Origin: Lentisphaeria bacterium UBA5247
Lineage (GTDB): Bacteria > Verrucomicrobiota > Lentisphaeria > Victivallales > Victivallaceae
Assembly (NCBI GenBank): GCA_002408885.1
Contig: DHTZ01000029.1
Coordinates: 2,041 to 66,040, forward strand
Direction: 5' to 3'
Length of the DNA stretch: 64,000 nt
Shown here: in pieces, positions 3,134-62,610 of the stretch
How the letters are laid out: each line of letters begins with the position of its first letter
Numbering within the stretch: the stretch's first letter is position 1
The notes under the pieces: model-generated
Seen by the model: only the letters and a program-made list of their open reading frames with translations
Database searches by the model: none
Told to the model about the DNA's origin: nothing
Position numbers and translations under genes: made by a program

Positions 3134-3267
3134 AAATCGGACTCCTGCCCGCTCGTTTCGCTGATGAATATTGAAGAACTCGGGGGGCTTTCCTGATTTT
3201 ATTTCATATGCTTGAGTTCAATATAATGGTATTCCATCTGAATTCAACAACTTTTGAAAATATACAA

Positions 3268-3294
3268 CCCCCGGCGGAGAAAACCGGACGGGGG
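3268..3294 (-). terminator. rho-independent terminator after the Gfo/Idh/MocA gene
   Basis: CCCCCG...CGGGGG stem (3268-3273 / 3289-3294). On the minus strand it is followed by the T-rich tail TTGTATATTTTC. It sits 26 nt downstream of the stop at 3320. Confidence 0.55.
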
Positions 3295-3319
3295 CTTTGG
3301 CGTTCAGCCAAAAACGGCC

Positions 3320-4357
3320 TCACGAGTCGAGGCTGGTCCACTTGCGGTCGCCGCCGGCGCTTTTGACGATGGCTTCGACAAAGGCTACGCCGCGGAAACC
3401 GTCGGCGGCATTCGGGAAGTCCGGCACGAATTTTCTATCGCCGTCCACATGTGCCCAGACCGCTTCGGCAAACCGGGTATAAACGTTGGCAAATGCTTCC
3501 AGAAAGCCTTCCGGATAACCGGCAGGAGTACGCGAGGTGGCCGCAGGCACGGTTTCCTGATGGCGGCAGAATACCTGCAACGGCTGTCCGTCCCGTTTGA
3601 CGGTCAGGGAATCGGGAGAGGCCAGGCGCCACTCAAGGGTTCCGAGTGTACCGTCGATACGGAGAAACAGATCGTTTTCCCGTCGTACACCGGTCAGGAC
3701 GCCGCGCGCGCCGTTGGCGAATCGCGTCAGTATATTGTCGCCGGGGGACAGGATGCGCGATTCCGCAGCAAGCAGATCGGCGCAGACTTCGGTGATTGGA
3801 TGCCCGGTCACGTATTCGACAAGGTTCTCGGCGGCGCCGTCAAGCCGTCCCTGCGGGTATTCGACCGTGACGCTGGTGATTTCGCCGATTTCACCGTCTT
3901 GAATCATGGCGCGCGCCTGGCGGAGCATCGAATAACCGTTGTAATTGCAGGCGAGGGCGAAAATCAGACCGCTCTCGCGGACTTGATCCGCCAGCGCCCG
4001 GGCATCTTCCAGCGAAAGCGCCATCGGTTTTTCGCAAATCACGTGGAAGCCGGATTTCAAGGCTTTGGTCGCGATATCGTAATGAATGGCGTCGGGCGCC
4101 ACGATGGTGATACAGTCGATCCGTTCCTCCGGCGGAAGTTCGTTTTCGAACTCCATCATTTCGTCGTAGCTCCGGTAACAGCGGTATTCCGGCAGAAAGA
4201 GTTCGGAGCCTTGCGCCAGGGTTTTGTCCCGGTCGCGACTGAACGCCCCGCCGATCAAATCGATTTTACCGTCGAGCCGGGCTGCCGCGCGGTGCACGGC
4301 CCCGATGACCGAACCCGGACCACCGCCCGCCATTCCCATCTTGATCTTACGTTTCAT
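3320..4357 (-). CDS. Gfo/Idh/MocA family NAD(P)-dependent oxidoreductase
   Basis: 345 aa. N-terminal Rossmann motif MGMAGGGPGSVIGAVH, and EKP motif (VICEKPMA). A GGAGG RBS lies upstream of the ATG. Confidence 0.85.
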   Translation of the reverse strand: MKRKIKMGMAGGGPGSVIGAVHRAAARLDGKIDLIGGAFSRDRDKTLAQGSELFLPEYRCYRSYDEMMEFENELPPEERIDCITIVAPDAIHYDIATKALKSGFHVICEKPMALSLEDARALADQVRESGLIFALACNYNGYSMLRQARAMIQDGEIGEITSVTVEYPQGRLDGAAENLVEYVTGHPITEVCADLLAAESRILSPGDNILTRFANGARGVLTGVRRENDLFLRIDGTLGTLEWRLASPDSLTVKRDGQPLQVFCRHQETVPAATSRTPAGYPEGFLEAFANVYTRFAEAVWAHVDGDRKFVPDFPNAADGFRGVAFVEAIVKSAGGDRKWTSLDS

Positions 4358-4454
4358 AGAACCTCCATAATTTTATTCTTTTCACCTTTCAGTTTAAAAT
4401 AACACAGGATTTCCAAATACGCAAGCCCGCAGTACGGGAAAAAACGCCTTTCGA

Positions 4455-7400
4455 TCAGTGTTCTCCGCGCCCGCATCCCCAGGCGAAAAGGGCGATCAAC
4501 AGCAGAACCGCTGCCAGAACCGACCATTTCAGCCCGGATGATGAAAGGCTGGTCTGCTCGGCATTGGCCTTGGCTGCCTCGATTTTGAAGCCTTTGACTG
4601 GAGCGGATGTGCCTTGTTCGGGGGCGCTTTCGGTTTGCTGGGCTTTGGGTTGGGCGGATGCGCCGGGATTTTCCCTGGACTTCCGGGGATTGTTTCCGAA
4701 CGATTCCCCCAGTTGCCGCTGCAGTTCCCGCCGTTCGCGGACCTGATCGCCCAGTGTACGCGCGGCGGCTTTTTCCACGGCCACCTGAAATTTCATCTGC
4801 ATTTCCGGCGACAACACGCCGGGCATTGAAATCAGATCCACCACCACCTGGTTCAGCAGGGGATTGTTACAGGTATGGTCGCAGCACGCCATCCCCTGAC
4901 GGATCACACTTTGAGCATAACCGGCGGCCAGCGACTGCCGGGTGGCGAGGTCGGCCTGCCAGTAATCCTTGCGCACTGCTTCCAGCATCCGCCCGGTCAT
5001 GGACTGGTAGGCCCATTCGTTGTTGGCGGCGAAGAATTCTTTCATATTCAGGTCATAGCGGTCTTCAACGTAAATTTCGTAGAGGTTCCGCCAGTCCGTG
5101 GCGGAGAGATTGTCCGGCGTGACCGCCTGCCAGCCCCAGACGTTGTCGGTCATGCGGGCAAGGGTTTTGGCGCCGGAGTATTGTTCCTTCATCATGGCCT
5201 CGATCCACTCGCGGTTGTACAGGCGGGAATCGAGTTCCGCCCCCATGAAGCTTTTCAGCGACGTGATTTTCTCCGCGGAACGGCGGCGCTGGTCCACAAT
5301 GTATTCCTCCGGGGCTTTGCCGGTACTTTTGCGGACGGCCAGAGACAGGCCGCCGAAATACTGGAACATGTCGTCGATATCCGTCACTCCGTAGACATTG
5401 CTGGAACGCGAATGGAACATCGCCTCCACCTGCGTCAAACCGGAGTCGAGAGCCGCCCGGGCTTCGCCGATTTCGCCGTCGGCGTTGACCGAATAGCCCA
5501 TGCTTTTCAGGTAAACCGCCGCGAGTTCGCGGTCATCCGTCCAGACGCCGGAGGACCCCGCCAGCTTGTTCAGCCGGGTGCCGTAGGTAGAGGGGGCCGG
5601 GAAGAAGACCCGGCGTTCGCTTAAATCGGCGGCCTCGGCAGCGGAGTGTCCCTGGCGGCGGAGTTCGGCGGCGTTTGCCTCGGTATTGCGGCGGATGAAG
5701 TTTTCCGCGTCGGTCAGGCGCGACGCCTGGCGCTGCGCCCGGTCGAGCAGTTGGATCAGGTCGCCGAACTGGTCCCGGTACGCGCCCGAGGTCGTAATCA
5801 ATACATCGATGCGGGGACGGTTCAGCAACGCGCCGGGAACCGCGATCACGCCGTTTACGCGGTCGTCGGCATCGTATTGCAGGCGCATTCCCATCAGGGC
5901 GAGCGCCATCGCTTCGTTGACACCGTCGGTGCGGGTGGTTTCCCCGGCCCAGAGGATCAGCGCTACCTTGGAGGGATAGCGGTTGTTTTTTTCGAGTTCG
6001 CGGTTCAGAAGTTCCTGAGCCAGTTTCACGCCTTTTTCCATCGCTTCGCGGGTGGGGATTTTAGCGGGGTCGAATGAATAAAAATTGCGCCCGACCGGCA
6101 GGGAGTCCGGGTTGCGCAACGGATCGCCGGACGGCCCCGGTTCGATGAAACGCCCCGAAAAGGCGCGCAGGAGCGCGGTCATCTCATCCGTTCCGGCGTT
6201 GGCCAGATGCGGTCCGGCGGCGGCGCGGTCCGGCTCCGGAATTTGTTCCAGCATGGCGGCGATTTCGTCGCCGGAGGGCGATTCGCCAAATGAATGCAGG
6301 CCGAACGGGGCAGGGGCCTTGCGAGCGTCGGCGTAATGTTCGAGTTTATGCCGCCAGCCGGGCGTTTTGCGGTCCAACCCGAGTCGTTCGGCGAGCCCGT
6401 GCTCCTCCACATAACGGAACAGGGCGCTTTCGCGTTGTTCCCGGACGGCGGGATCGGCGGTCTGAAAATCGACGACTTTCTGGCGGAGCCCCAGCAGAAC
6501 CTGGTCTTCCGCCGGGATTTTCAGGAACGGTGCCAGATGGTCGATCATGACGGCGGAAGCACGGCGTTTGGCGATGATGCCTTCGCCGATGCCGTCGGAA
6601 ATATACGGATAGATTTCGGGAATGTCTCCGCGTACGATCAACGGGGCGCATTCGGCGCTCATCCCGAGCTGTTTGCCGGGGAGCCATTCGCTTGAGCCGT
6701 GCCGTCCGAGGTGAACCATCGCGTCCGCGTTAAACTCATGGCGGAGCCAGAGATACACGGCCAGATATTGATGCGGCGGCGCCAGCGTCGCCGAATGGAC
6801 CAGTTTGTGCGGATCGTCCAGCCAGCCGCGCATCGGTTCCGGCAGGATGACGAGATTGCCGCGGCGGAGCATCGGCAGGATAAAGTCGTTGCCGACGGAC
6901 ATGATGGTGGATTTGCCGGGAGGGCCCCATTCGTCCATGACGCTCCGGCGGAAACTTTCCGGGAGCTCGGCAAACCATTTCAGGTATTGATCGAAGGGAA
7001 GGCGGACGGCGTCCGCTTTTTCCAGAAAGGCGTCCAGCTCGCCCGGCGCCCAGGAACCGACGTTGCGGGCGTTCTGCAGAATCAGCGTGGTCATGGCGGT
7101 TTCGTCAAGCACCTCCAGCCCGCCGGTTGCGTATTGTTCGCGGGCGAGCGCCCGGGTGATGTTGCAGATACTGCGCGGCACGTTCAGGTAGCTTGCGCCG
7201 ATGGTCTGTTTGCCGCCGGAACCGTTGTAGACGAAAATGGCGATCTTCTTTTCGGAATTGTTTTTCCGGCGAAGCCCGATCCATTTCTTAAGCCGCCGGG
7301 CGGTAATATCGATCTGCGCCGGGAACGGTTCGCCGATCTGAACCGTCTTGCCGGACGCGTCGCTCCGGCTCCGGGCGCCGAACAGCAGGGACGGTTCGAT

Positions 7401-8357
7401 CATCCCCGAAATCTCCGGCGCGATAAAGCCGAACGCCACCGAAAAATCATTCATCCCGCGCACCGATGCTTCCCATTCCGGGGTGGTCTGGCGGTAGAGC
7501 CGGAGCGCGTTGAACACCGGCATGTCCAGTTTTTTCAAGGCCAGCCGGAGCGGCTCGCCCAGCCCGGATTTGAATTTGAACGACAGCGCCAGCAGCGCGT
7601 CCACCGTCTGCCTGCCGTCGGCATCCAGCAGGAGCTCGTTGATCACCCGGACTTCGTCGCCGTAAACGACGGCCACATTCACGCCCTGCCGTTCGAAGCC
7701 GTCGGTCAGATGGCGGAACAGCTCCATTTCGCTTTTGTTGATGCTTGCCGAATGGACGGCGAACGCCACCAAACCGTTTCCCGGACGGTAAAAACCGTTC
7801 TTCACTCCCCATTCACGGTAAGCCGAGATGGAGGGAAACACCTGTCCGCCCGCGGCCGGATGGGTGACGCCGAGATCGGGCAGGGTGACAGGCGGTTCAA
7901 ACGCAACGGACGGGTCCAGTTCGCGGTTGACGATCCAGTAAATCATGTTCTTGAAATTTTGCGGGCGGCGGTTGGCACGGTAGGCCTTGACCTCCGGCGG
8001 TTCCAGCGCCGGGATGTTCTTCGGCAGGCGGCGGGCGGAAAAGGCGTAAAGTTTCGTCCGGGAAAAATCGATTTTGTCCGAAACCAGCTCGCGCAATTCG
8101 ATGACCAGTGAGTTGATGATCAGGATATCGGCCTGCCGAGCGCGCTCGGTGATCTTGTCCATCGAATCGACCGGCGTACAGTAATATTCAAAGGTTATAT
8201 GGTCCGGCAACTGTAAATCGGCAAAGGCTTCCGCCGCCAGGTCGGTATCGTTGCCGCCGCCGAGGAAAACCACACGGGAACGTTCCGCCGCGGGCAGGGC
8301 TGACAGCAGAAAACAGCAGAGCAGAACCCAAATGCCCGGCAAATAACGCATGGTCAT
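4455..8357 (-). CDS. CobN/Mg-chelatase-family (HmuS-like) large chelatase/dechelatase subunit, exported and C-terminally anchored
   Basis: 1300 aa. CobN hallmark HLGRHGSSEWLPGKQ. N-terminal signal peptide MTMRYLPGIWVLLCCFLLSALPAAE. C-terminal hydrophobic helix WSVLAAVLLLIALFAWG. ATGA overlap with the upstream gene. Confidence 0.8.
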   Translation of the reverse strand: MTMRYLPGIWVLLCCFLLSALPAAERSRVVFLGGGNDTDLAAEAFADLQLPDHITFEYYCTPVDSMDKITERARQADILIINSLVIELRELVSDKIDFSRTKLYAFSARRLPKNIPALEPPEVKAYRANRRPQNFKNMIYWIVNRELDPSVAFEPPVTLPDLGVTHPAAGGQVFPSISAYREWGVKNGFYRPGNGLVAFAVHSASINKSEMELFRHLTDGFERQGVNVAVVYGDEVRVINELLLDADGRQTVDALLALSFKFKSGLGEPLRLALKKLDMPVFNALRLYRQTTPEWEASVRGMNDFSVAFGFIAPEISGMIEPSLLFGARSRSDASGKTVQIGEPFPAQIDITARRLKKWIGLRRKNNSEKKIAIFVYNGSGGKQTIGASYLNVPRSICNITRALAREQYATGGLEVLDETAMTTLILQNARNVGSWAPGELDAFLEKADAVRLPFDQYLKWFAELPESFRRSVMDEWGPPGKSTIMSVGNDFILPMLRRGNLVILPEPMRGWLDDPHKLVHSATLAPPHQYLAVYLWLRHEFNADAMVHLGRHGSSEWLPGKQLGMSAECAPLIVRGDIPEIYPYISDGIGEGIIAKRRASAVMIDHLAPFLKIPAEDQVLLGLRQKVVDFQTADPAVREQRESALFRYVEEHGLAERLGLDRKTPGWRHKLEHYADARKAPAPFGLHSFGESPSGDEIAAMLEQIPEPDRAAAGPHLANAGTDEMTALLRAFSGRFIEPGPSGDPLRNPDSLPVGRNFYSFDPAKIPTREAMEKGVKLAQELLNRELEKNNRYPSKVALILWAGETTRTDGVNEAMALALMGMRLQYDADDRVNGVIAVPGALLNRPRIDVLITTSGAYRDQFGDLIQLLDRAQRQASRLTDAENFIRRNTEANAAELRRQGHSAAEAADLSERRVFFPAPSTYGTRLNKLAGSSGVWTDDRELAAVYLKSMGYSVNADGEIGEARAALDSGLTQVEAMFHSRSSNVYGVTDIDDMFQYFGGLSLAVRKSTGKAPEEYIVDQRRRSAEKITSLKSFMGAELDSRLYNREWIEAMMKEQYSGAKTLARMTDNVWGWQAVTPDNLSATDWRNLYEIYVEDRYDLNMKEFFAANNEWAYQSMTGRMLEAVRKDYWQADLATRQSLAAGYAQSVIRQGMACCDHTCNNPLLNQVVVDLISMPGVLSPEMQMKFQVAVEKAAARTLGDQVRERRELQRQLGESFGNNPRKSRENPGASAQPKAQQTESAPEQGTSAPVKGFKIEAAKANAEQTSLSSSGLKWSVLAAVLLLIALFAWGCGRGEH

Positions 8358-8692
8358 TCCTCCGGTACGTAAATCATGGAACCGTCTTCCAGTTGATAGG
8401 CGGTTCCGAGGCGGACTCCTTTGCCGGCGGCTTCTTCGCGGGTCATGCGCATCGCCTGAATTTTGCGGCCTTTTTTCTCGATGATGACCATTTCGCCGTT
8501 CTCGTTCTTCTTGACGATGGTCATGGAGGAATCGCGGGAAAACAGTTCTTTCGCGTCAAACGTGGTCATCAGCGCCAGCAGCAGCGCCGCGATGAAAATG
8601 ACCGCCGTGTCGAATAGATTGGCCACGCCGTTCATCGGGTCGCCCGCGTCGGCGCTCTCGGAAATTTTACGGTAATCACGCATGAATTTCAT
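8354..8692 (-). CDS. small single-TM protein, ExbD/TolR-like topology (DUF2149-like)
   Basis: 112 aa with one TM helix carrying an Asp (NLFDTAVIFIAALLLAL), followed by a ~70-aa soluble domain. Overlaps both neighbouring genes. The family name is from memory and gene context. Confidence 0.6.
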   Translation of the reverse strand: MKFMRDYRKISESADAGDPMNGVANLFDTAVIFIAALLLALMTTFDAKELFSRDSSMTIVKKNENGEMVIIEKKGRKIQAMRMTREEAAGKGVRLGTAYQLEDGSMIYVPEE

Positions 8693-9227
8693 GATACATC
8701 TGCTCCGTCAGGAATTCCATGTTCCGGATGTCGTTTTCGACGAAACGGTAACGAATCGTGTAGATCAGAAACGAAAGGCAACTGACCAGCAGCCCCACCA
8801 CCGTCGTCGTATAAGCCACCACCAGTTCCGCGGTCATGACGGACACGTCGCCTTGTCCGAGGCTCGCCAGCGCGGTCCCCATCGGGACCAGCGTGCCGAT
8901 CAAGCCCAGCGCGGGGCCGATCCGGGTGACGATGCGGAATTTATCCAGGAAAGCCTGCCGGCGATGAATACTCTCGCGCAGGAAGTTCTGGATTTCATGC
9001 TCGGGGGCGTGGCGGCTCAACATTTCCGCCAGGGTTTTACGGTACGCTTCGACCGGCGCGCTGAACTCCGTATTCCGAAGCCGCCGCCGCCGGACCCAGT
9101 CGGCCAGCAGCTTGCCGCATTCGAAGAAAATCCACGCCGACAACCCGGTCAACAGCAACAACACCGGGTAAAGCACACAGCTTGAAAGCACAAATAAAAA
9201 AGTCTTGATTCCGGCAAACATATCCAT
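8676..9227 (-). CDS. MotA/TolQ/ExbB proton-channel family protein
   Basis: 183 aa with three TM segments. Signature GPALGLIGTLVPMGTAL is typical of ExbB/TolQ. Confidence 0.8.
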   Translation of the reverse strand: MDMFAGIKTFLFVLSSCVLYPVLLLLTGLSAWIFFECGKLLADWVRRRRLRNTEFSAPVEAYRKTLAEMLSRHAPEHEIQNFLRESIHRRQAFLDKFRIVTRIGPALGLIGTLVPMGTALASLGQGDVSVMTAELVVAYTTTVVGLLVSCLSFLIYTIRYRFVENDIRNMEFLTEQMYHEIHA

Positions 9228-9233
9228 ATCCGT

Positions 9234-9992
9234 CTAACGTCCTTTGCGTTTAAAAGTTTCCAGCAGAAATCCCGCCGCCGCCACGACAGCCGCCAGCAGG
9301 CAGACGGCGGCGATCTGCCACGTCAGCCTTGCCGTGCTCTCGGCAGCGCATGCCGTGGCATATAATTTCCCCACATCCTGAAGCTGGGGAGCCACCAGCA
9401 AAATGAGAATAAAGTACAGGGCGATAAAAATCATCATCTTACCCGTGAACCAAAGCGGCTGGAAGGAAAAAAGCCGTCCGATTCCCAACAGCCCGACCAG
9501 GAATAATATATTGAACAACAGGAAAAACGCGGGTACGGCGACCGGCAGCCACGCGGCGTATTCCGGAAGCAGCATCCGGGCGAACGCGCAGACCAGAAAA
9601 ACAGCCGAGGCGCAAACCGGACAGGGCACCGCCAACAGCAGCCAGCCGTTTGAATCGGCTTTGTCCGGCGTTTCGCCGGGGCGATGGCAAAGCAGGCGGA
9701 TACCCCAGACCAGCAAACCACCGCAAAGCAGAAGGTGCAGGGCGGTCCCCGTCTGCAGAAAACTGCTGGAATTCCCGGCGAACCCGAATAAATCGAATCT
9801 GGACAACAGCGCGAAGGCCAGAACGAACAGGAGCAGGTAAGCCCCCCAGGTGGCCGCCAGAAAGACCGTCCGTTTCACCGTGGAACGGTATATGGAAAAG
9901 AAATAATATTCCCCCACCGCGGTTTTAAAGGCAAAAACGCTTAGCGCCATTGCCAGCCCGGCGGCGATGCTGAGGGATTCCGCTAAATGCAT
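9234..9992 (-). CDS. polytopic inner-membrane protein (DUF2162-like by context)
   Basis: 252 aa, about 7 hydrophobic helices, first gene of the CobN operon. The family assignment is tentative. Confidence 0.5.
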   Translation of the reverse strand: MHLAESLSIAAGLAMALSVFAFKTAVGEYYFFSIYRSTVKRTVFLAATWGAYLLLFVLAFALLSRFDLFGFAGNSSSFLQTGTALHLLLCGGLLVWGIRLLCHRPGETPDKADSNGWLLLAVPCPVCASAVFLVCAFARMLLPEYAAWLPVAVPAFFLLFNILFLVGLLGIGRLFSFQPLWFTGKMMIFIALYFILILLVAPQLQDVGKLYATACAAESTARLTWQIAAVCLLAAVVAAAGFLLETFKRKGR

Positions 9993-10029
9993 ATCCGAAT
10001 TTCCTTATTACGTTTTTATGAAAAATAAT

Positions 10030-10057
10030 AATATAATACCGGAAAAATATTTGACAA
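10030..10057 (-). promoter_or_regulatory. candidate sigma70 promoter of the CobN-type operon
   Basis: On the minus strand: TTGTCA (10057-10052), 16-nt spacer, TATATT (10035-10030). An AAGGAAA RBS precedes the ATG at 9992. Confidence 0.35.
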
Positions 10058-10163
10058 CCGCAATATGGAATTTTCCCGGCAAATATAGTTTCAGGATGGC
10101 CGCCGGGAATTTGCATTTTGCGGTCGGCGCATTATGTTATAGCAGATTTGGAGATAATTTAGA

Positions 10164-12071
10164 ATGCGCATATTGAGATCCCTGGGAATTGCCGCGATGC
10201 TCCTGCTCCTTGCCGGATGCGGCGGGACCATTCATTTAAAAGAAGTCGGACGGAGCGGGCGCGAAGACAGTTTCGTCAAGGCCGCCAAAAATTTTGACGG
10301 TCTCTCCGATTTGTCGCTGAGCTACCTGAACGCCAATCTCCTGACCGGGGAATTCCGCAGTAACCCGGATACGGTCATCCGGGGACTGCACCAGCGTTTT
10401 TTAGCTTATCAGGAACGTGAAGTCCTGGAAATGCTGGCCGACATCTGTCATTATCTGGGCCGGAAAACGTCCGACGACGCCAAGGCGATCCGTTATTACA
10501 CCTCGTGCGCGCTCTATTCCTACCACTATCTGTTCGGCGAAAACCTTTACCCGGCGCGCGGCACATTCAGCAGCTCCGGCGAATTATTCTGCATCCGTTA
10601 TTACAATGCCTCGGTCACTCATATTTTTGAATTTCTGTCCGACCGGGGGATGCTCTGGCTGGAATCGTTCATGCTGCCGACGGTGATCGACGACAGCCCG
10701 GTTCATTTCGAAGTGCCGCTCTATGATCTGTCGTTTCCCCGCGATTATTACGATAAATTCACGGCGGCAAGCAATTACAGGGTCAGCGGAGCTTTGACTT
10801 ACAGCGGCCGTTTCGGCATCGGCGTGCCGATGGTCGGAGAACTGAAGTCCGGGCCGGACGTTAAGAATGATTTCCTGTCGGACGGCATGCCGACACCGCT
10901 GACGATCTTCCTGCGTTTCAAATTTCAGGATAAGCGTGTTTCGGCCACCTTTGAATTTTATGACACGTTTAAAACCGAAACCGTCCAGGTAAACGGCAAG
11001 GATATCCCGCTGGAGCTGGATTTCACGACTCCGTTGGCGTTTATGCTCAAAACGCCGGAGGTGCTGCCGGGGATTTTCGCCATGCTCAACCCGGACAAGA
11101 CGTCCCGGTACAACGGCATTTATATGTTGACGCCTTATTCGAAAGACCGTATTCCGGTTGTTTTCGTCCACGGCCTGATGTCCAATCCGCGTACCTGGGC
11201 GCAATTGCTCAATACGTTGCTCAGCACCGAGGCCATCCGCCAGAATTACCAGTTCATGATGTTCGGCTATTCGACCGGCAACCCGATTATTTATTCCGCG
11301 AAACAATTGAGAACGGAGTTGACCGGGTTCCATCAAAAGTTCAATCCCGGATCGGACAACCCGAATTTCAACCGGATGGTGGTGATCGGCCACAGCATGG
11401 GCGGATTGCTGACGAAAACATTGATTCAGGACAGCGGCGACTATCTGGCCGAACAGTTGCTCGACGACAAAAAGCGGAAAATATGGGATAACCTGACGGA
11501 AGAACAGCGGGCCTATTTCCAAAGCATGGCATACTTCAAAGCGCTGCCGTTTGTGCGGCGGGTCGTCTTTATGGCGGTACCGCACCAAGGTTCGGACCTG
11601 GCGACCAAATCGTTTGCCGGTTTTTTCGCTTCGCTGATCTCGCTGCCGAAAGACCTGATCAATGAAATCCATGCGATTTCCAAGTCTGCCTTGATCGATG
11701 CGGGACTGGTCAAGGAGGATGGACGGGTCCTCATCGTCACCGGCATCGGCAACCTGAACCCGAAAGATCCCTCGTTGAAAGCCTTGAATGCGTTGCCGTT
11801 CAAGGACGATGTCATTTTTCACTCCGTCATCGGCAACCGGAAAAAAGCCGATACGCCGGGCGGCGACGACGGCGTGGTATCGTACCTGAGCTCGCACCTC
11901 GATGGCGCCAAGAGCGAACTGGTGGTGAAATCCGGCCACAGTGTCCAGAGTACCGCCGCCGCCATTGACGAGATCCGGCGGATTCTGCTGCTGCACCTGT
12001 ACGAAAACGGATTGCTGCAGGGATACGGGTTCCAGCGCAAAGATTTGAAGGAAAAAAGTGGGCGAAATTAA
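10164..12071 (+). CDS. lipoprotein with C-terminal alpha/beta-hydrolase (lipase/esterase-like) domain
   Basis: 635 aa. Lipobox LLLLAGCGG. PVVFVHGLMSNPRTW and the nucleophile elbow GHSMGG. Confidence 0.75.
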   Translation: MRILRSLGIAAMLLLLAGCGGTIHLKEVGRSGREDSFVKAAKNFDGLSDLSLSYLNANLLTGEFRSNPDTVIRGLHQRFLAYQEREVLEMLADICHYLGRKTSDDAKAIRYYTSCALYSYHYLFGENLYPARGTFSSSGELFCIRYYNASVTHIFEFLSDRGMLWLESFMLPTVIDDSPVHFEVPLYDLSFPRDYYDKFTAASNYRVSGALTYSGRFGIGVPMVGELKSGPDVKNDFLSDGMPTPLTIFLRFKFQDKRVSATFEFYDTFKTETVQVNGKDIPLELDFTTPLAFMLKTPEVLPGIFAMLNPDKTSRYNGIYMLTPYSKDRIPVVFVHGLMSNPRTWAQLLNTLLSTEAIRQNYQFMMFGYSTGNPIIYSAKQLRTELTGFHQKFNPGSDNPNFNRMVVIGHSMGGLLTKTLIQDSGDYLAEQLLDDKKRKIWDNLTEEQRAYFQSMAYFKALPFVRRVVFMAVPHQGSDLATKSFAGFFASLISLPKDLINEIHAISKSALIDAGLVKEDGRVLIVTGIGNLNPKDPSLKALNALPFKDDVIFHSVIGNRKKADTPGGDDGVVSYLSSHLDGAKSELVVKSGHSVQSTAAAIDEIRRILLLHLYENGLLQGYGFQRKDLKEKSGRN

Positions 12072-27769: not shown

Positions 27770-28516
27770 ATGTTTATAAAACGATACAGGCGTCGGGCAT
27801 GGAGAATTTTCACCTTGATTGAACTCCTTGTCGTGATCGCGATCATCGCGATTCTCGCCGCCATGCTGCTGCCGGCACTAAGCAAGGCACGGGACAAAGC
27901 ACGAGCCATCACCTGCGTCGGCAACCTCAAGCAGAACGGCCAACTGCTGATGCTCTACCAGCAGGATCACGGCATGTATTTTGCCAACCACAACGCAACC
28001 ACCGACAATATTACCAACGGCGCGCTGCCGGACCGTGGCTGGATCTGGACCCGATTTCTGATCGAAGGCGGCTACGCGAAGCCTTATCTGCCGATTTTCC
28101 GCTGTCCGGTCAGTTCCGCCGAAACGAATGTTTCCGAAACCATGTTTTACAGTTACGGGGCCTTTTACTCGAATCTTCACGGTACGCCGTCTCAATTTGC
28201 CTTTAACCTGAAACACGAGGGCATTCAAAAGGCGGGATATTCCAAAACCGTGCTGATGGCCGACAGCGGCACGGTTCCTGCTGGCTCCTCTTATTCAAAA
28301 CTATTGACTTCCAACGCATCCGGTACCGCTTATTCCCGAATTTATGGAGTTCACGCGGGCAGGGCCAACCTGCTGTTGCTGGACGGTCATGTGAGCGGGG
28401 CGGCGCAGGCGGAAATCAAGCAGGACTATTACGCGCTCCATTTCAATAACGGAGTTCAGGTATTCAATTATTTCTGCGTCGGGCCTTTCGGCTCAACCAT
28501 GATGTCGAATCTATAA
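27770..28516 (+). CDS. prepilin-type N-terminal cleavage/methylation protein, DUF1559 (H-X9-DG) family
   Basis: [24 protein letters not shown] pseudopilin leader. C-terminal [12 protein letters not shown] fits the H-X9-DG pattern exactly. Confidence 0.85.
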
Positions 28517-31938: not shown

Positions 31939-32379
31939 TTATTTCGGGCGGACGGCCCGCAGGAATTCCTCCGCGCGGGTCTTGTTTCCTTCCGGGAACA
32001 GGAAATCGTACAGGTTGGCCATATGGCGGTTTTGGGTTACACTGAAGCCGAGAGCATCCAGTCGGATTTGAAAGCCTTCCCACGAATCAAAGAATTCAAG
32101 GTCGCCATTGGCAAGGTTTAATATGAATTGTGAATTGCCAAAGCCGTAAATATATGGATAATCGGCCCGGATTTCGAGGTATCCCGGACCGATGATTATG
32201 TTATTTTGCGGATCGACAATAACCATTTCATTGGGTGCATGCAAACGCCAGACATAACCGTGCGGCAATCGTATCCGGGTGTTTTCCAGGTATCGCCAAT
32301 AGACGAATGCCGTCAATACCGCGCAAAACAACACGATTAAAAACAACCATATATATTTCCCGGGATTCACAAACATCAC
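31939..32379 (-). CDS. small N-terminally anchored protein, last gene of the MoxR/VWA operon
   Basis: 146 aa. TM helix YIWLFLIVLFCAVLTAFVYW. 4-nt overlap with the upstream VWA gene. Confidence 0.5.
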   Translation of the reverse strand: MMFVNPGKYIWLFLIVLFCAVLTAFVYWRYLENTRIRLPHGYVWRLHAPNEMVIVDPQNNIIIGPGYLEIRADYPYIYGFGNSQFILNLANGDLEFFDSWEGFQIRLDALGFSVTQNRHMANLYDFLFPEGNKTRAEEFLRAVRPK

Positions 32380-33407
32380 GGCAGGCGCAGTTTGACGGTG
32401 TTGTTCAGGAGAAATCCCAGCAGCAGCAGCGCCAGCGCGATTCCGGCCAATACCGGGGCATACTCTTTGTAATCAATGAATTTCGGCTGTTCGATTCCCG
32501 TCTTTTCCATCTGGTTGATCTCCTCCATGACCTGCGCCAGTCCTTTGGCGTCATAGGCACGGTAGAATTGCCCGCCGGTAGCGGCGGCAATCTCCCGGAG
32601 AAGCGGTTCGTCATAGCTGTCCGGCACCGGCACCAGTTCGGTGCCGAACGGCGTCGACACCGGTACGATCGCCTGACTGCTGCCGATCCCCACCGTATAA
32701 ATGACGATGCCGGTTTCCTTGGCGACTTCCGCCGCCTGGCGCGGCGTAATCCGCGCATCGACGTTGTTCGCGCCGTCCGTAAACAGCACAATCACCCGCC
32801 GCTTGGAATTGCTGTCCTCAAGCCTGCTGACGCTGGAGGCAATCGGGCCGGCAATGCCGGTGGCGTCGCCGATCATGCCCGGCTGGAGTTTTTCAAGGTG
32901 TTGAACCAGCCATGCATGGTCCAGCGTCGGGGGGCTGATATTGTAGGGCAGTTGCGCGAAACCGGTCAGGCCGATACGGTCGGTCGGTCGCTTTTCCACG
33001 AATTTGATCAATTCCTGTTTGGCGGTTTCGAGGCGGTTCCTTAATTTGCCGCTGTTCAACGCCTGCTGGAACTGCGCTTTGGTGGCGATGTCCTGCGGCA
33101 GATCGATCGCCTGCATACTGCCGGAAAGGTCGATCGCCAGCATGATGTCAATCCCCTGCGCCTTGATCACCACCTGTTCGATTCCGATCCGGGGGCGGGC
33201 GGCGGCGGCGATCAGCAGGATCGCGCCGAGCACCATCAACCAGACCGGCAGGGTCATACCTCCGCCACGGTTCAGGCGGCTCGCCTCCGCCATCGGCTGG
33301 AGCGTGGAAATGCGGATGGACGGCTGCTTCTGGAAAAACATCAGGTACCAGACCAGCAACGCCAGCGGAAGAAGTAACAATAAAAGCCAGGGATATTCAA
33401 AAGTCAT
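32376..33407 (-). CDS. VWA-domain membrane protein (BatA-like)
   Basis: 343 aa. N- and C-terminal TM helices. MIDAS motif IMLAIDLSGSM. Confidence 0.8.
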   Translation of the reverse strand: MTFEYPWLLLLLLPLALLVWYLMFFQKQPSIRISTLQPMAEASRLNRGGGMTLPVWLMVLGAILLIAAAARPRIGIEQVVIKAQGIDIMLAIDLSGSMQAIDLPQDIATKAQFQQALNSGKLRNRLETAKQELIKFVEKRPTDRIGLTGFAQLPYNISPPTLDHAWLVQHLEKLQPGMIGDATGIAGPIASSVSRLEDSNSKRRVIVLFTDGANNVDARITPRQAAEVAKETGIVIYTVGIGSSQAIVPVSTPFGTELVPVPDSYDEPLLREIAAATGGQFYRAYDAKGLAQVMEEINQMEKTGIEQPKFIDYKEYAPVLAGIALALLLLGFLLNNTVKLRLP

Positions 33408-34372
33408 TTGCGGCCTCCCGGTTCATCGACGGGTTTGGTTTCATGGACAAGGGTTTCAGCCTTTTCAATGGCGGAATTCAACATTTGTTCATCCGGCGGC
33501 ATTTTGGCAAACTTGACCAGGTCCGCCGAGGTCATGAATTCGGACAGGAACGGGCGCTGCCGTTCGGGAAGGGGACCGTCGCCGCGGCTGAGTTCGGCCA
33601 TGAATTCAGGCGTGGTCTGGCGGGCTGCATGCAGACGGAAACGTTTTTCCAGATACACCCGGACGATGTCGGTCAGGCGCACCAGCCCGGTTTCCAGATT
33701 CAATTTGCCGCCGCGCAAATCATGATGCAGCACCGCGATATCCTGCAGGGCCTGCGTCCACGGCGGTATCACATGGGCGCGTTTGCGGCGCTTCAGCAAA
33801 ACGATCACCAAGGCGACAATCACCACGACCAGCGCAATGATGCCGTACAGAAACCAGCGCTCCCGTGAAGTCAATGACGGCGGTTCAACCGCTCCGGCAA
33901 CTTGCAGGTCCGGCGTGGCGACCGAAATTTCATTCACCTGACAGGAAGGAATCGTCTGGCTGACCGCCGCGTCCTTCCGGTGAACCTGATCGAAATCGAC
34001 CACCATTTTGCCGCCGCCGAGGATTCCGGTACGGTATGTTTTGAATTCAAACTCCACCTGCCACTCGCACCAGCCCCAGCGATAATGGGAAACCCGGATC
34101 GCCGGTTCGCCGATCTGCAACAACCCCTGAACCGGTTCAACCGCGGCGGAAACGATTTTGCGTCCCCACGGAACCCGGTAAGTGGAAGCGGCTTTGACGG
34201 TTCCGCCGAGCGCGACCGCGGACGGTTCCAGCGTCGGAGCGGAAAGGCTTTCCACCGGGTTCACACGTACCTGGCGCCAGGTGTACCAGCCCGCGGCGGC
34301 GGTCAGCACGATCAGGCCGATCACAGTCAGCAGGACAATCAGAATGATTTTTTTGATCAAAGGCCAGCTCAT
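33404..34372 (-). CDS. two-TM protein with DUF4381-like C-terminal domain
   Basis: 322 aa: TM, ~130-aa beta-rich region, TM, then an RRKR segment and a helical domain ending ...DLVKFAKMPP, as in DUF4381 proteins of Bat-type operons. Confidence 0.5.
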   Translation of the reverse strand: MSWPLIKKIILIVLLTVIGLIVLTAAAGWYTWRQVRVNPVESLSAPTLEPSAVALGGTVKAASTYRVPWGRKIVSAAVEPVQGLLQIGEPAIRVSHYRWGWCEWQVEFEFKTYRTGILGGGKMVVDFDQVHRKDAAVSQTIPSCQVNEISVATPDLQVAGAVEPPSLTSRERWFLYGIIALVVVIVALVIVLLKRRKRAHVIPPWTQALQDIAVLHHDLRGGKLNLETGLVRLTDIVRVYLEKRFRLHAARQTTPEFMAELSRGDGPLPERQRPFLSEFMTSADLVKFAKMPPDEQMLNSAIEKAETLVHETKPVDEPGGRK

Positions 34373-35244
34373 GCGGTCCTCCGTTTCCGGCGTTTGCCGA
34401 AGAATTTCATCAGGGATTTCACATAGTCGTCGCCGCAGCGGATATCCACAAGGTCAACCCGGGCGCGGTCGCAGCTTTTCTTCATGGCGTCGTGAAACGC
34501 CACCGATTTTTCGCTGAAACGCTTCTGACCTGCCTTGCTCAGGCTCACGATGCCGCCGCTCTCGGCGTCTTCCAGCACCACACCGGCAAGGGGGCGCCAC
34601 CGGACTTCCAACGGATCGAGAATCCGGATGGCGACCAGGTCGTGGCGACGGTTCACGATTCGCATGGATTTTTCGATATCGTCTTTGGCGATCAGGTCGC
34701 TGATCAGAAAGACCACGCTGCGTTTGTTCAGGACTTGCAGGGTTTCTTTCAGCGCGGCGTTGATATCGGTCCCGTTGCGGCCGGGCTTGAACGCCACCAG
34801 TTCGCGGATCAGCCGCAAAACATGCGAACGCCCGGAGCGCGGCGGCAGGTAGAGTTCCGTGGAATCGGAAAACATCAGCAAACCCACCCGGTCGTTGTTG
34901 CGGATGGCGCTGAACGCCAGCAGCGAAGCGATTTCAATGGCGTTCTGCCGTTTGGACTTGTCGCCGCTGCCGAACGCCCCCGAAGCGGAGACGTCCACCA
35001 CCAGCATCACGGTGAGCTCGCGTTCCTCCACGAATTTCTTGATATACGGCATCCCCATGCGCGCGGTGACGTTCCAGTCGATATCGCGGGCGTCATCCTC
35101 GGGCGTGTATTCACGGACTTCGTCGAATTCGATGCCGCGCCCCTTGAACATACTGTGGTAGGCGCCGCCGATCAATTCATCGACGATCCGGTTGGTGCGT
35201 ATCTCAATTTTTCGCACTTGTTTGATCAGTTCTGATGGCAGCAT
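34369..35244 (-). CDS. DUF58 domain protein (VWA-like, MoxR partner)
   Basis: 291 aa. FKGRGIEFDEVREYTPEDDARDIDW and LVVDVSASGAFGS motifs. Confidence 0.8.
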   Translation of the reverse strand: MLPSELIKQVRKIEIRTNRIVDELIGGAYHSMFKGRGIEFDEVREYTPEDDARDIDWNVTARMGMPYIKKFVEERELTVMLVVDVSASGAFGSGDKSKRQNAIEIASLLAFSAIRNNDRVGLLMFSDSTELYLPPRSGRSHVLRLIRELVAFKPGRNGTDINAALKETLQVLNKRSVVFLISDLIAKDDIEKSMRIVNRRHDLVAIRILDPLEVRWRPLAGVVLEDAESGGIVSLSKAGQKRFSEKSVAFHDAMKKSCDRARVDLVDIRCGDDYVKSLMKFFGKRRKRRTA

Positions 35245-35255
35245 GAGGAGCCTCC

Positions 35256-36278
35256 TTACGGTGTATGGAGCTCGTCCAGAATCATTTTGACAACCGCGTC
35301 GGAATCCATGTTTTCCGCCTCGGCCTCGTAGGAGATCATGACGCGGTGGCGGAGCACGTCCGGCGCGACATCCTTCACGTCCTGCGGGACCACATAGCCG
35401 CGCCCGGCCATGAACGCATATCCCTTGACCGCCAGAGCCAGCGAGATTGCCGCGCGCGGCGACGCGCCGACATCGATCAGGTTGGCCAGTTGGCCGAGCT
35501 TGGCATTGGACTGGCGGGCGGAAAGCTCCGCGTGCCGGGCAGGGCGGGTGGCGATGACGATATCGAGGATGTAATCGATGATTTTCTCATCCACATAAAC
35601 CTTGTCGAGCCATTTGCGGGCTTCGAGAATATTGTCGAGCGAGGTCACAGCCAGTGAATCGAGCTTGATCTCCGGATGCGCCATGCGGTCGATGATCATG
35701 CGTTCTTCGTCGCGCTTCGGGTAATCGATTTTGAGCTTGAACATGAAACGGTCCACCTGAGCTTCCGGCAGCGGATAGGTCCCTTCCTGTTCGATCGGGT
35801 TCTGGGTGGCCATGACCAGGAACGGATGCGGCATGGGATGGGTTTTGCCGGCGATGGTGGTCTGGCGTTCCTGCATGGCTTCCAGGAGAGCGCTCTGAAC
35901 CTTGGCGGGAGCGCGGTTGATTTCATCCGCAAGTACGACGTTGGCGAAAACCGGGCCGAGCTTGGTGGTGAATTCATGGGTGTCGGCATTATAAATCCGG
36001 GTGCCGATCACGTCCGCCGGAAGCAGGTCCGGCGTGAATTGGATACGGGAAAACGAACCTGAGATACTTTGGGCAAGCGTTTTAACGGCAAGCGTTTTCG
36101 CCAGCCCCGGGACGCCCTCGACCAATACGTGTCCGTCCGCGATCAAGGACAATATCAGGCGGTCCACCAGATATTGCTGCCCGACGACGGTCCGGCCGAT
36201 TTCAGTACGCAGCGGCCCGATGAATACGGATACTTCACGAATTTTGTTTTGCAGTTCCTGAATGTCTTGTTGTTGCAT
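35256..36278 (-). CDS. MoxR-family AAA+ ATPase
   Basis: 340 aa. Walker A VEGVPGLAKT, Walker B LADEINRA, and MoxR-type C-terminal region. Confidence 0.9.
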   Translation of the reverse strand: MQQQDIQELQNKIREVSVFIGPLRTEIGRTVVGQQYLVDRLILSLIADGHVLVEGVPGLAKTLAVKTLAQSISGSFSRIQFTPDLLPADVIGTRIYNADTHEFTTKLGPVFANVVLADEINRAPAKVQSALLEAMQERQTTIAGKTHPMPHPFLVMATQNPIEQEGTYPLPEAQVDRFMFKLKIDYPKRDEERMIIDRMAHPEIKLDSLAVTSLDNILEARKWLDKVYVDEKIIDYILDIVIATRPARHAELSARQSNAKLGQLANLIDVGASPRAAISLALAVKGYAFMAGRGYVVPQDVKDVAPDVLRHRVMISYEAEAENMDSDAVVKMILDELHTP

Positions 36279-40428: not shown

Positions 40429-41028
40429 ATGGAAAAGAATAAAATCGCCATCGTCGGACTGAACTTCATGTGCGGTTTGACCCGCTCGACGATGATTGTC
40501 AGAGGGATTCTCTTTATCCTTCTCGGACTGGCCATGCTGATCTGTCCGCTGGGACTTGTCCGCATTATCGTTCAGGTCACCGGGGCATTGCTGATCTTCA
40601 ACGGCATCGGAGCGTTGTTCGCGCCTCCGCATTTTTCGCCGGTACTGCGCTGGGGATATCCGATCATAACCATCCTGCTGGGGCTGTTTGCACTGATCCT
40701 GCCGGGTGAGACTCAATGGATGTTCCTGATGTTCATTGCGGCATGGTTCCTGCTCAGCGGAGGCATTCAGCTGGCCATGCTTTTCCTGCCCGGCGACAAT
40801 GGACCTGCCAAGGCGCTGTCCGGATTGTCCGCGGTCATCAATATCCTGCTCGGGGTTATTTTCGCCTCGCATCCGTTCACCGGGCTGGTCGCCTTTCTCT
40901 GGCTCTTTGCCTCTTTCCTGATTGCGGGAGGGATTTTCACCATTGTATTGGGCTGCTGCATGCCGCAGTTGACCGCGAGCGTCTGCGGCTGCCGCAACGA
41001 CGGCGACGAAAATCAATCGCAGGACTGA
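40429..41028 (+). CDS. HdeD/DUF308-family membrane protein
   Basis: 199 aa, six hydrophobic helices with the repeated GxxxIxxG pattern typical of DUF308. Confidence 0.65.
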   Translation: MEKNKIAIVGLNFMCGLTRSTMIVRGILFILLGLAMLICPLGLVRIIVQVTGALLIFNGIGALFAPPHFSPVLRWGYPIITILLGLFALILPGETQWMFLMFIAAWFLLSGGIQLAMLFLPGDNGPAKALSGLSAVINILLGVIFASHPFTGLVAFLWLFASFLIAGGIFTIVLGCCMPQLTASVCGCRNDGDENQSQD

Positions 41029-42272
41029 ACCTCGTCAAACGCTCGCAACGCTTCCGGAAACGGAGTCAGCACCCGCCGCAGCACCCCTTGGCAATAGGAA
41101 ATGCACATGCCGTAATTGGTGACCGGGATTCCGGCGGCGTTCGCCTGCTGAATTCGCGAAAGCACCGCCCGGCGGTTCAGCATGCAGCCGCCGCACAGAA
41201 TCACCAATGAGTAACTGTTCAGGTCGTCCGGGTAGTTGCAGCCCGCGAAAACTTCAATGTCCAGATCGTCGCGCCCGGTATAGCGGCGCAGCCAGCGCGG
41301 GATTTTAACCCTGCCGATATCGTCTTCCGTTTCATGATGGGTACAGGCTTCGGCGATCAGCACTTTGCCGCCGTGTCTCTTTAAATTCTCGATGGCGGCG
41401 GCCCCCGCGGCCATCGCCGCCATGTCGCCTTTCAGCCGGGCAAACAGGATTGAAAACGTTGTACAGGGCATATCGTCCGGCGTCTCGCGCACCATCAGGT
41501 CCACCACCTGCGAATCGCAGATCGCCAGCGCGGCCGGAGTTTTGAGGTTGTCCAATGCCTGACGGTAACGGCCTTCTTTGACCATGATGGCGATATTGTC
41601 ATGGTCCAAAGCATCGCGCAAAGTCTGCACCTGCGGCAGGATCAGGCGTCCTTTCGGAGCTTGCAAGTCGATGGGAATCAACAGGACCACCGCGTCGCCC
41701 GGCGCGACAAGGTCCGCCACCAACGGCGGCGGGACCAGAAAATCATCGGGACAGAATTCGATCAGCGCCTGCTTGTATTCGTTGAGAAAACGGTCCCGCG
41801 CCGCCGGATCGCTGCTGGAAACGGCAATGACGGCGCCGCCGTTGGTTTCCGTTTTGACGGCATCCCGGAATTCCGGCGAAAGGGGAGCGAGGTCGCATTT
41901 ATTGACAATGGTGATCAGGGGGATTTTGCGCGAAAGCGCTTCCTGAACGACTCGTTTTTCGGTATCGCCCCACTGTCCGGCTTCCGTCACCAGAGTGATG
42001 ATATCCGCCTGGCCGAAGACTTTGTAGGTTTTGCGAAGCCGTTCCGTTCCCAGTTCGCTGACATCGTCCAGTCCGGCGGTGTCCAGAAATACCACCGGGC
42101 CGAGCGGCAGAAGCTCCATCGGCTTGCTGACCACGTCGGTTGTCGTACCGGCGATGGGGGAGGTGATGGCGGCCGGTTGACCGGAGATGAGGTTCAACAA
42201 ACTTGATTTGCCGACGTTGGTCCGTCCGAAAATTCCGATATGAAGCCGTAGTGACTTGGGGGCCTGTTCCAT
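41013..42272 (-). CDS. hydF: [FeFe]-hydrogenase H-cluster maturation GTPase HydF
   Basis: G1 GRTNVGKSS, G-domain, and C-terminal cluster motif CTH...x46...LCGGC. Start set at MEQAPKS. The upstream extension is AT-rich non-coding sequence. Confidence 0.8.
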   Translation of the reverse strand: MEQAPKSLRLHIGIFGRTNVGKSSLLNLISGQPAAITSPIAGTTTDVVSKPMELLPLGPVVFLDTAGLDDVSELGTERLRKTYKVFGQADIITLVTEAGQWGDTEKRVVQEALSRKIPLITIVNKCDLAPLSPEFRDAVKTETNGGAVIAVSSSDPAARDRFLNEYKQALIEFCPDDFLVPPPLVADLVAPGDAVVLLIPIDLQAPKGRLILPQVQTLRDALDHDNIAIMVKEGRYRQALDNLKTPAALAICDSQVVDLMVRETPDDMPCTTFSILFARLKGDMAAMAAGAAAIENLKRHGGKVLIAEACTHHETEDDIGRVKIPRWLRRYTGRDDLDIEVFAGCNYPDDLNSYSLVILCGGCMLNRRAVLSRIQQANAAGIPVTNYGMCISYCQGVLRRVLTPFPEALRAFDEVQSCD

Positions 42273-42355
42273 TCCGCACCTCGTATAAATCGTTAATTTT
42301 ATATTAATATAATCGGATTTCGATGAAATAAAAGCCGTTATTTGCAATTACCCTC

Positions 42356-62346: not shown

Positions 62347-62461
62347 AGTTCTATCCTGATTAAAAAATGATATCCTGAATGCAAACACAATTCGGGACTG
62401 TGTTTTTTGTTCATACCTAATTATACCGCCATCCTACAGGGATATCAATCGCATATTCATT

Positions 62462-62489: not shown

Positions 62490-62506
62490 TTCATGTATGG
62501 CGAAAT

Positions 62507-62563: not shown

Positions 62564-62610
62564 TTCGCTGTTAATAAGTTGTTTACCATTGCAACGCACG
62601 GCAACATGAA

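Follow-up and report, generated by a model that had tools for sequence, protein, structure and literature searches.

How an exported relative of the chelatase CobN could work outside the cytoplasm, and on which metal, is the question raised by a four-gene operon in a stretch of DNA from Lentisphaeria bacterium UBA5247, a member of the Victivallales from a fermentation metagenome (contig DHTZ01000029.1, positions 2,041 to 66,040; the whole 64-kb stretch is called the window here, and positions are counted from its first letter). The operon consists of four tightly packed minus-strand genes, which encode in this order a polytopic DUF2162 membrane protein (9234-9992, 252 aa; Pfam 2e-27), a MotA/TolQ/ExbB-family proton-channel subunit (8676-9227, 183 aa; PF01618, 1.4e-12), a DUF2149 protein (8354-8692, 112 aa; PF09919, 9e-29) and a CobN/ChlH/HmuS-superfamily protein (4455-8357, 1300 aa; CobN-Mg_chel, PF02514, 1.3e-283, 944 bits). 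The first two genes are separated by 6 nt, the second and third overlap by 17 nt, and the third and fourth overlap by 4 nt; P0001, the public gene call of 1298 aa, has the CobN-like protein begin at its second Met, and the last junction then becomes a 2-nt gap. An earlier reading of the letters alone, here called the original prediction, had described the four genes and their junctions in the same way, all peptides it quoted were present in the open reading frame (ORF) list and translations, and Pfam bore out its assignment of the proteins to CobN, MotA_ExbB, DUF2149 and DUF2162. With a probability of roughly 55%, we propose that this module is a NikR-repressed nickel-acquisition route and, among the envelope systems of the BtuS/HmuS type that extract metals, one that responds to nickel.

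The upstream region of the operon contained a palindrome, TTATTAC-N13-ATAATAA (10005-10031, assigned to no strand), which is separated by 13 nt from the DUF2162 start codon downstream of it and has one mismatch to the Lentisphaerae operator consensus TTATTAC-N13-GTAATAA. It was the only such site beside a gene start in the window, against a chance expectation of 0.09 per window. Only one good promoter-like site precedes the operon, a sigma-70-like promoter (10028-10057, minus strand; -35 TTGTCA, -10 TATATT/TATTAT) that is a consensus match only, with 10 of 12 positions matched; the palindrome overlaps its 3' part, at the -10 element. Of the 14 Lentisphaerae loci with upstream sequence, 13 have a palindrome with at most two mismatches at a distance of 10-20 nt before the first module gene, and the background was 11 such sites in 1.13 Mb of non-Lentisphaerae loci. 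The architecture, an inverted repeat of 7-nt half-sites with a 13-14-nt spacer, is that of NikR boxes, for which we took the consensus from Rodionov 2004: GTGTTAC-N13/14-GTAACAC, with the variant GTaTTAC (PMC545781).

A gene for NikR itself (RHH_1 plus NikR_C) is the neighbour of the module in Lentisphaerae of three separate lineages (L004, L005/6 and L012; loci are cited by such numbers where they have to be told apart), and by inspection the NikR proteins of these lineages keep the H-x-H-x5-C nickel-site motif. In an Elusimicrobiota metagenome-assembled genome (L073, 2722-15969), the order is nikR, cbiM/nikM, an 88-aa gene with two transmembrane (TM) segments, DUF2162, MotA-like, DUF2149 and CobN-like, followed by genes for a TonB-dependent receptor, a BtuFCD-type ABC transporter (Peripla_BP_2, FecCD and an ABC ATPase) and a Gate-domain protein. 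The cbiM/nikM product matched PF01891 at 9e-50 and has the N-terminus MHISEG, and the nikR promoter is overlapped by an AATAATT-N13-AATTATT inverted repeat. The module of L073 shares its nickel locus with a chelate-type ABC importer; no other locus proved to have NikM when all were searched for it. In the NiCoT and Cbi/NikMNQO transporters, cobalt and nickel members are told apart by control through a B12 riboswitch or through NikR (PMC7689651, PMC2667541). Since the Lentisphaerae operator occupies the place held by the B12 riboswitch in the sister clade described below, the same division suggests a nickel function for the Lentisphaerae module, and the operator together with the nikR and nikM neighbours of relatives points to nickel, not to haem or iron. 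This conserved operator and these neighbours, the most informative feature of the locus, were missed by the original prediction.

Beside the module in several Lentisphaerae there is also a gene for a conserved DUF1559/SBP_bac_10 prepilin-type protein (N_methyl; motifs NGGGYGYN and HFRH..DGH), located at L004:13803-14682, L006:7358-8321, L010:14220-15113, L012:14257-15153 and L020:14145-15068. It is preceded by the NikR-box-like palindrome of the module, often in two copies, and its sole paralogue in the window (27770-28516) has no box. The DUF1559 protein may be a co-regulated envelope component in place of the missing TonB-dependent receptor.

Relatives of the locus were collected by scanning one genome per GTDB species with DUF2149 as the seed, and the best 80 of 550 stretches were annotated with purpose-built profile hidden Markov models (HMMs); the DUF2149 homologue search returned close relatives only, and no Bacteroidota or archaeal members. 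The MotA-like gene preceded DUF2149 in all 80 annotated loci, and a CobN-like gene was present in 74 of them; these two small genes are conserved together with CobN homologues, as the original prediction required. Among the six loci with no CobN-like gene, five are cut off by a contig edge shortly behind the trio, and in the sixth (L070) the fetched flank ends right after a BtuF-CbiZ gene. The MotA-like, DUF2149 and CobN-like genes occurred together in 14/14 Lentisphaerae loci, those from Lentisphaerae including a Victivallis vadensis metagenome-assembled genome (L007/L011), and because the order was the same in every Lentisphaerae relative examined, the four-gene arrangement is not a product of chance.

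Relatives at 38-41% identity (Desulfobacterota, Deferrisoma and a metagenome) kept the order DUF2162, MotA-like, DUF2149, CobN-like and added a TonB-dependent receptor, a Peripla_BP_2+CbiZ fusion and CbiK, all behind Rfam-confirmed cobalamin riboswitches. Riboswitch-like elements preceded the operon in 43 of 59 Desulfobacterota-type genome loci (46 loci when L001-L003 are counted), and six riboswitch loci were re-confirmed with Rfam, including the bare four-gene modules L040, L041, L058 and L060. This riboswitch-controlled sister clade, with its identical gene order and its CbiZ, CbiK and BtuF-like genes, and the CobN-like Asp-Asp pair in the active site of the window protein would fit a BtuS-type module for corrinoid or cobalt salvage. 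The Lentisphaerae loci, however, make such a function highly improbable: Rfam detected no cobalamin riboswitch in the window or in 10 Lentisphaerae loci, an nhmmer model found none in any Lentisphaerae locus, a receptor of the BtuB type or any other, BtuF, CbiZ, their fusion and CbiK stood beside none of the 14 modules, and the riboswitch's place is taken by the NikR-type operator.

Several arrangements among the relatives are worth recording. BtuF-like Peripla_BP_2 plus CbiZ fusions were encoded beside B12-type modules at L001:7959-10004 and L002:14310-16313, and on a metagenome contig the Peripla_BP_2-CbiZ part is joined to the CobN-like protein itself (P0080, L003:10001-15868, 1955 aa); these fusions suggest periplasmic corrinoid processing. 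Tandem modules occurred in Desulfobacter/Desulfospira (L031:3-14521 and L045:2-14291), in the order CobN-DUF2162-MotA-DUF2149 followed by receptor-DUF2162-MotA-DUF2149-CobN. Five Sphingobacteriia loci (L034, L047, L051, L068 and L080) had the order receptor, MotA-like, DUF2149, CobN-like, which is unlike hmuYRSTUV, and DUF2162 was not detectable in them; Rfam found no cobalamin riboswitch in L034, L047 or L080.

The CobN-like protein contained only two hydrophobic segments in a Kyte-Doolittle scan, aa 3-25 and aa 1271-1298. The first belongs to a signal-like N-terminus (aa 1-25, MTMRYLPGIWVLLCCFLLSALPAAE; 8283-8357, minus strand), and the second is a C-terminal membrane anchor (4464-4547, minus strand) that follows a conserved SSSG-x-W motif; by hydropathy and alignment, the signal-like N-terminus and the 'SSSG-x-W + TM' anchor were common to all relatives. 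HmuS and BtuS are periplasm-facing and membrane-anchored (PMC10100974, PMC6460266). Read from the sequence and this literature, the protein is probably exported, located in the envelope and anchored in the membrane, and the envelope location that the original prediction had assumed is supported to that extent.

Comparison with solved structures gave ten matches for the full-length protein, all ten to members of the CobN/ChlH/HmuS superfamily, with scores of 438 bits for HmuS, 376 for CobN and 361 for ChlH. Against NCBIfam, the protein remained under the cut-off of all nine CobN/BchH models (best score, 816 bits vs 1619). In the structure alignment, His553 (6699-6701, minus strand) corresponds to the catalytic His538 of HmuS and Glu592 (6582-6584, minus strand) to Glu577, and both were invariant in 64 CobN-like proteins. 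Asp995-Asp996 (5370-5375, minus strand) corresponds to Asp1208-His1209 of HmuS and shows the Asp-Asp state of bona fide CobN; the motif at this site reads 'IDD' in the window protein, 'SDD' in CobN, 'LDH' in HmuS and 'VSH' in ChlH. The catalytic dyads were kept in all 64 relatives aligned. When aa 520-620 were compared alone, CobN scored 101 and 97 bits, HmuS 79 and ChlH 74. The insertion region of HmuS (648-929, about 280 residues) is reduced to 57 residues in the window protein and to 55-110 in relatives, and by the structure alignment and the 64-sequence alignment the Met-rich insertion is absent from the window protein. The site-1 haem ligands Met79 and His254 of HmuS are replaced by Leu84 and Phe260, and a His at the His254-equivalent position occurred in 0/64 relatives, the N-terminal alignment being of lower confidence in both cases.

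A neighbour-joining tree with 200 bootstraps, built from 234 core columns with reference fragments included and indicative only because the alignment is short, recovered the Lentisphaerae CobN-like proteins as monophyletic (200/200), placed them as sister to the riboswitch-controlled clade (193/200) and set this pair on the CobN side of a split from {HmuS, ChlH} (154/200). The window protein is thus best classified in a Lentisphaerae clade of the BtuS-like group. Because the Met-rich insertion, Met79/His254 and His1209 are all missing, it is not an HmuS orthologue, and its catalytic core, with Asp-Asp, resembles that of CobN; the 'HmuS-type' label of the original prediction had to be given up, since the marks of the HmuS family are absent and the core is CobN-like.

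These data also bear on the possibility that the module is a haem de-chelatase like HmuS that supplies iron. HmuS is an experimentally established membrane-bound haem de-chelatase with a cryo-electron microscopy structure (9d26; PMC12583661), no other solved structure matched the full-length protein as well (438 bits), and homologues of HmuU and HmuV are encoded in the operon. The hmu genes of Porphyromonas gingivalis and Bacteroides thetaiotaomicron include one of the CobN family (hmuS), one of the MotA/TolQ/ExbB family (hmuU) and one for DUF2149 (hmuV) (PMC11681262, PMC10434189), and the link to hmuYRSTUV drawn by the original prediction is correct (PMC11681262). Two Bacteroides hmu loci were available: the contig of L089 ends inside hmuS, and in the frameshifted assembly of L090 HmuU and HmuV could be used, HmuT as fragments only. 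The HmuU and HmuV of L090 were clearly homologous to the window proteins, the MotA-like protein being aligned with its relatives and Bacteroides HmuU, and L090 also contained HmuY and HmuR. The window and the 14 Lentisphaerae loci, in contrast, had a gene order different from hmu and lacked HmuY and HmuR, as the original prediction had claimed. With Met79 changed to Leu, His254 to Phe and His1209 to Asp, no Met-rich insertion, a core that groups with CobN and not with HmuS/ChlH (154/200), an operator that is NikR-like and not Fur-like, and nikR and nikM as neighbours in relatives, haem as the substrate is most improbable.

DUF2162 proteins are rare: of 1.84 billion representatives searched, the family accounts for 212 clusters formed at 50% identity. 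In a set of 111 sequences (average 30% identity) from the representative search, Gly12, Lys23 and Pro123-Cys124-Pro125 were invariant and His86, Trp96 and Cys127 were at least 90% conserved. The AlphaFold2 model was all-helical, with a predicted local distance difference test score (pLDDT) of 91.5 and a predicted template modelling score of 0.82, and in it the motif P123-C124-P125-V126-C127 (9612-9626, minus strand) falls within the membrane, at the break that divides helix 111-121 from helix 125-141. Pfam found no second family in the protein at E<=10, and against Bacteroides HmuT (available from L090 as fragments only) there was no detectable similarity and no Cys motif in the HmuT region. 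Cys-Pro-x-Cys at an intramembrane helix break recalls the CPx motifs of metal-transporting P1B ATPases, and by this analogy the PCPxC motif may have a comparable role; DUF2162 is a candidate metal-translocating subunit.

A metal channel of this kind would also serve a system in which free Ni(II) (or Ni/Co) ions are imported without any tetrapyrrole, the CobN-like protein only binds the metal in the periplasm or hands it over to DUF2162, and the stator supplies the energy. Such import would agree with the invariant Cys motif, with the occurrence of the bare four-gene module in loci that have no receptor, with the division between B12 riboswitch and NikR that is typical of cobalt and nickel ion transporters (PMC7689651, PMC2667541), and with the remark that CbiK-using Desulfobacterota have no known cobalt transporter (PMC545781). 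Yet 1300 aa with a fully conserved chelatase active site would be excessive for binding ions, and chelated substrates are indicated both by the BtuB-like receptors, BtuF-CbiZ and CbiK near B12-type relatives and by the FecCD/BtuFCD-type chelate importer of L073. We consider free-ion import unlikely.

The MotA-like protein gave weak NCBIfam matches to ExbB, PomA and MotA. In the AlphaFold2 model (pLDDT 64), the DUF2149 protein has a single TM helix and, C-terminal to it, a small beta-rich domain, and the invariant Asp28 within the helix (8609-8611, minus strand) is a candidate proton-binding residue comparable to the Asp of ExbD/TolR. DUF2149 had no ExbD match in Pfam. Of the 'ExbB/ExbD-like trio' named by the original prediction, the family membership of the MotA-like protein and the ExbD-like layout of DUF2149 held, while DUF2149 has no profile match to ExbD and, as far as its low-confidence model allows, no fold match, and DUF2162 has no counterpart in ExbBD.

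What this pair drives can be read in two ways. In the published hmu model (PMC10100974, PMC12583661), a pair of this kind substitutes for ExbB/ExbD; applied here, it would act by way of a TonB encoded elsewhere on a TonB-dependent receptor whose gene is unlinked, supplying it with energy, and the CobN-like enzyme would receive no mechanical input. This is compatible with a nickel function and denies only the coupling of stator and chelatase. Receptors were adjacent in 52 of the 59 non-Lentisphaerae loci, and HmuS alone is active in vitro (PMC12583661). Against this, canonical ExbB-ExbD-TonB genes accompany the MotA-like/DUF2149 pair in the same riboswitch-controlled locus in L001, L027, L054, L069 and L088, which gives these loci two stator-type pairs of different kinds; as a second energiser for the same receptor the pair would be redundant there, and this argues against its being simply a receptor energiser. 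Moreover, the pair stays with the CobN-like gene and DUF2162 in 14/14 receptor-less Lentisphaerae loci, and DUF2149 has no similarity to the TonB-contacting domain of ExbD. The absence of a TonB-dependent receptor from all 14 loci makes a proton channel that replaces a motor somewhat more attractive than the receptor-energising view of HmuU/V, and we judge the latter quite unlikely to explain the pair here.

The nickel-acquisition route that we favour would work as follows. When nickel is plentiful, NikR would bind the palindrome over the -10 element and the transcription start and the operon would be off; under nickel limitation, all four proteins would be made. The CobN-like protein would be exported and held at the inner membrane by its C-terminal helix, and in the periplasm it would take nickel from a chelate, most plausibly a tetrapyrrole-type ligand. 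Extraction would occur at the site formed by His553/Glu592 and Asp995/Asp996, by analogy with HmuS, which removes Fe(II) from haem. The released Ni(II) would pass to DUF2162, with the intramembrane Pro-Cys-Pro-x-Cys at the helix break as the likely translocation site. Through the MotA/ExbB-like protein and DUF2149 (Asp28), the proton gradient would drive extraction or transport, and this proton-driven pair would stand in for the ATP-driven AAA+ partners, which are unable to work in the periplasm.

A number of observations weigh against this reading. We know of no organism in which nickel-tetrapyrrole scavenging has been described. In the window palindrome the second half-site is degenerate (ATAATAA vs GTAATAA), nikR was not found in the 64-kb window by tblastn with nikR or by the NikR HMM, and Pfam detected no nickel enzyme or other nickel gene there (no hyp, ure or lar). 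Foldseek found no significant relative of the DUF2162 model in the PDB, known transporters included. For DUF2149, hhalign against the canonical ExbD of related loci gave a probability of 0.3%, and Foldseek on the pLDDT-64 model returned no ExbD/TolR match and nothing significant. HmuS is active in vitro without HmuT, HmuU and HmuV (PMC12583661), so the stator is not needed for the chemistry in that enzyme, and published models have HmuU/V energise the receptor through TonB (PMC10100974).

Pfam and purpose-built HMMs for TonB-dependent receptors, TonB, CbiK, CbiZ and NikR were run on the complete set of 52 greedy ORF calls of the window. No cob/cbi, ChlI/ChlD, CobS/CobT, TonB or TonB-dependent receptor gene was found among them. 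Rfam reported no family at gathering score anywhere in the 64 kb, the cobalamin riboswitch included, and nothing relevant in 9900-10400 at E<=1. The claims of the original prediction that AAA+ chelatase partners, B12 genes, a cobalamin riboswitch and a TonB receptor are lacking thus held for the entire window. The only AAA+ genes were ClpA and those of a MoxR/VWA Bat-type operon (32376-36278, minus strand; BatA/VWA, an unknown gene, DUF58/VWA and MoxR (AAA_3)), which combines AAA+ with VWA and is of the same broad kind as ChlI/ChlD; we rejected it as a hidden AAA+ partner, since it lies 22 kb off and is a typical BatA/MoxR cluster.

On the other side of the operon, a plus-strand ORF (3254-4402, 382 aa) is Arg/Gly-rich, belongs to no family and was rejected as spurious. 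The real gene antisense to it encodes a GFO/IDH/MocA NAD-binding oxidoreductase of 345 aa (3320-4357, minus strand). It shares the strand of the CobN-like gene, follows it after 97 nt and has a promoter-like site of its own (4398-4370). This oxidoreductase stood beside the module only in near-identical contigs and not in other Lentisphaerae; in view of the NADH dependence of HmuS it was considered as a supplier of reductant and rejected, being absent from all other loci. The window also encodes HydF, the [FeFe]-hydrogenase maturation GTPase (41013-42347, minus strand), and at its end (62001-64000) G+C falls to 0.454 with a GC skew of -0.17, close to a secretin-domain ORF (62803-63672).

A literature search found no published link of the four-gene module to NikR or nickel, and no mention of the receptor-less Lentisphaerae form, of DUF2162 as a distinct Cys-motif subunit unrelated to HmuT, or of the CobN-like state of the active site. 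To our knowledge, biological de-chelation has been shown so far only for haem iron. If the nickel reading is true, nickel would be the second metal for which it is known, with cobalt probably the third in view of the sister clade, and the module would acquire nickel with no component in common with NikABCDE, NikMNQO or NiCoT. In a bolder form, which we put forward as speculation, the module would be the first nickel counterpart of the haem de-chelatase: under NikR control, it would strip nickel tetrapyrroles in the periplasm, such as coenzyme F430 or its breakdown products from methanogens in fermentative communities; a proton-powered MotA/ExbB-type stator docked on the conserved C-terminal SSSG-TM anchor would drive the enzyme mechanically, as an ion-driven motor that replaces the class-I AAA+ ATPase, and DUF2162 would be a new CPxC-type metal channel. 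The receptor-less Lentisphaerae version represents a minimal natural form, a clean system in which to ask what work an HmuU/V-type stator really does and, outside the cytoplasm, what takes the place of the AAA+ motor, and DUF2162 gains a testable role and a confident structural model. The nickel reading, if it is true, also contradicts the published claim that HmuT/HmuV-type proteins are diagnostic of haem transport (PMC10100974).

Among known systems, exported CobN-like proteins with HmuU/V-type partners and riboswitch-controlled hmu-like operons are already on record (PMC10100974, PMC6460266). With HmuS-HmuT-HmuU-HmuV, the window operon shares an exported, anchored CobN-superfamily protein beside MotA/ExbB-family and DUF2149 genes and the His/Glu catalytic dyad, and AAA+ partners occur in neither. 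The order is S-T-U-V in hmu and DUF2162-U-V-S in the window, the HmuY and HmuR of the hmu operon are found in neither the window nor the 14 Lentisphaerae loci, and HmuS has a Met-rich insertion, a Met79/His254 haem site and His1209, whereas the window protein lacks the first two and has Asp at the third. The window instead has DUF2162 with its PCPxC motif, which bears no detectable similarity to HmuT, and a NikR-like regulatory signal.

The BtuS family of CobN-like proteins goes back to Rodionov 2003, as cited in PMC6460266, and was represented here by the riboswitch-controlled Desulfobacterota loci (L001-L003 and L023-L088). These share with the window the order DUF2162-MotA-DUF2149-CobN-like, the N-terminal signal, the SSSG-TM anchor and the Asp-Asp state. 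Cobalamin riboswitches, usually a BtuB-like receptor, the BtuF-CbiZ fusion, CbiK and sometimes ExbB-ExbD-TonB belong to the BtuS-type loci, while the Lentisphaerae clade has the NikR-type operator and none of these corrinoid uptake genes. Bona fide CobN, the large subunit of the aerobic cobaltochelatase (PDB 9uk9 and 7c6o), has the same Pfam family, the most similar catalytic core and the Asp-Asp motif; it is cytoplasmic, depends on ATP and AAA+ partners (CobS/CobT) and is encoded in cob operons, whereas the window protein is predicted to be exported and anchored and has no cob context.

As in the ExbB-ExbD, TolQ-TolR and MotA-MotB stators, the gene of a MotA_ExbB member in the window overlaps the gene after it, whose product has one TM helix with an invariant Asp in it. 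DUF2149, with its pLDDT-64 model, differs in having no detectable sequence or fold relation to ExbD/TolR, and the window pair is accompanied by no gene for TonB or TolA, the partners of ExbB-ExbD and TolQ-TolR; as possible clients, TonB and TonB-dependent receptors were found neither in the 64-kb window nor in the Lentisphaerae flanks. Helicobacter pylori takes up nickel through a NikR-controlled TonB-dependent system. This system, NikABCDE, Nik(MN)QO and NiCoT have no CobN-family protein, DUF2162 or DUF2149; what they have in common with the window operon is a NikR operator over the promoter, predicted in the window and accompanied in its relatives by an adjacent nikR and, in L073, by nikM.

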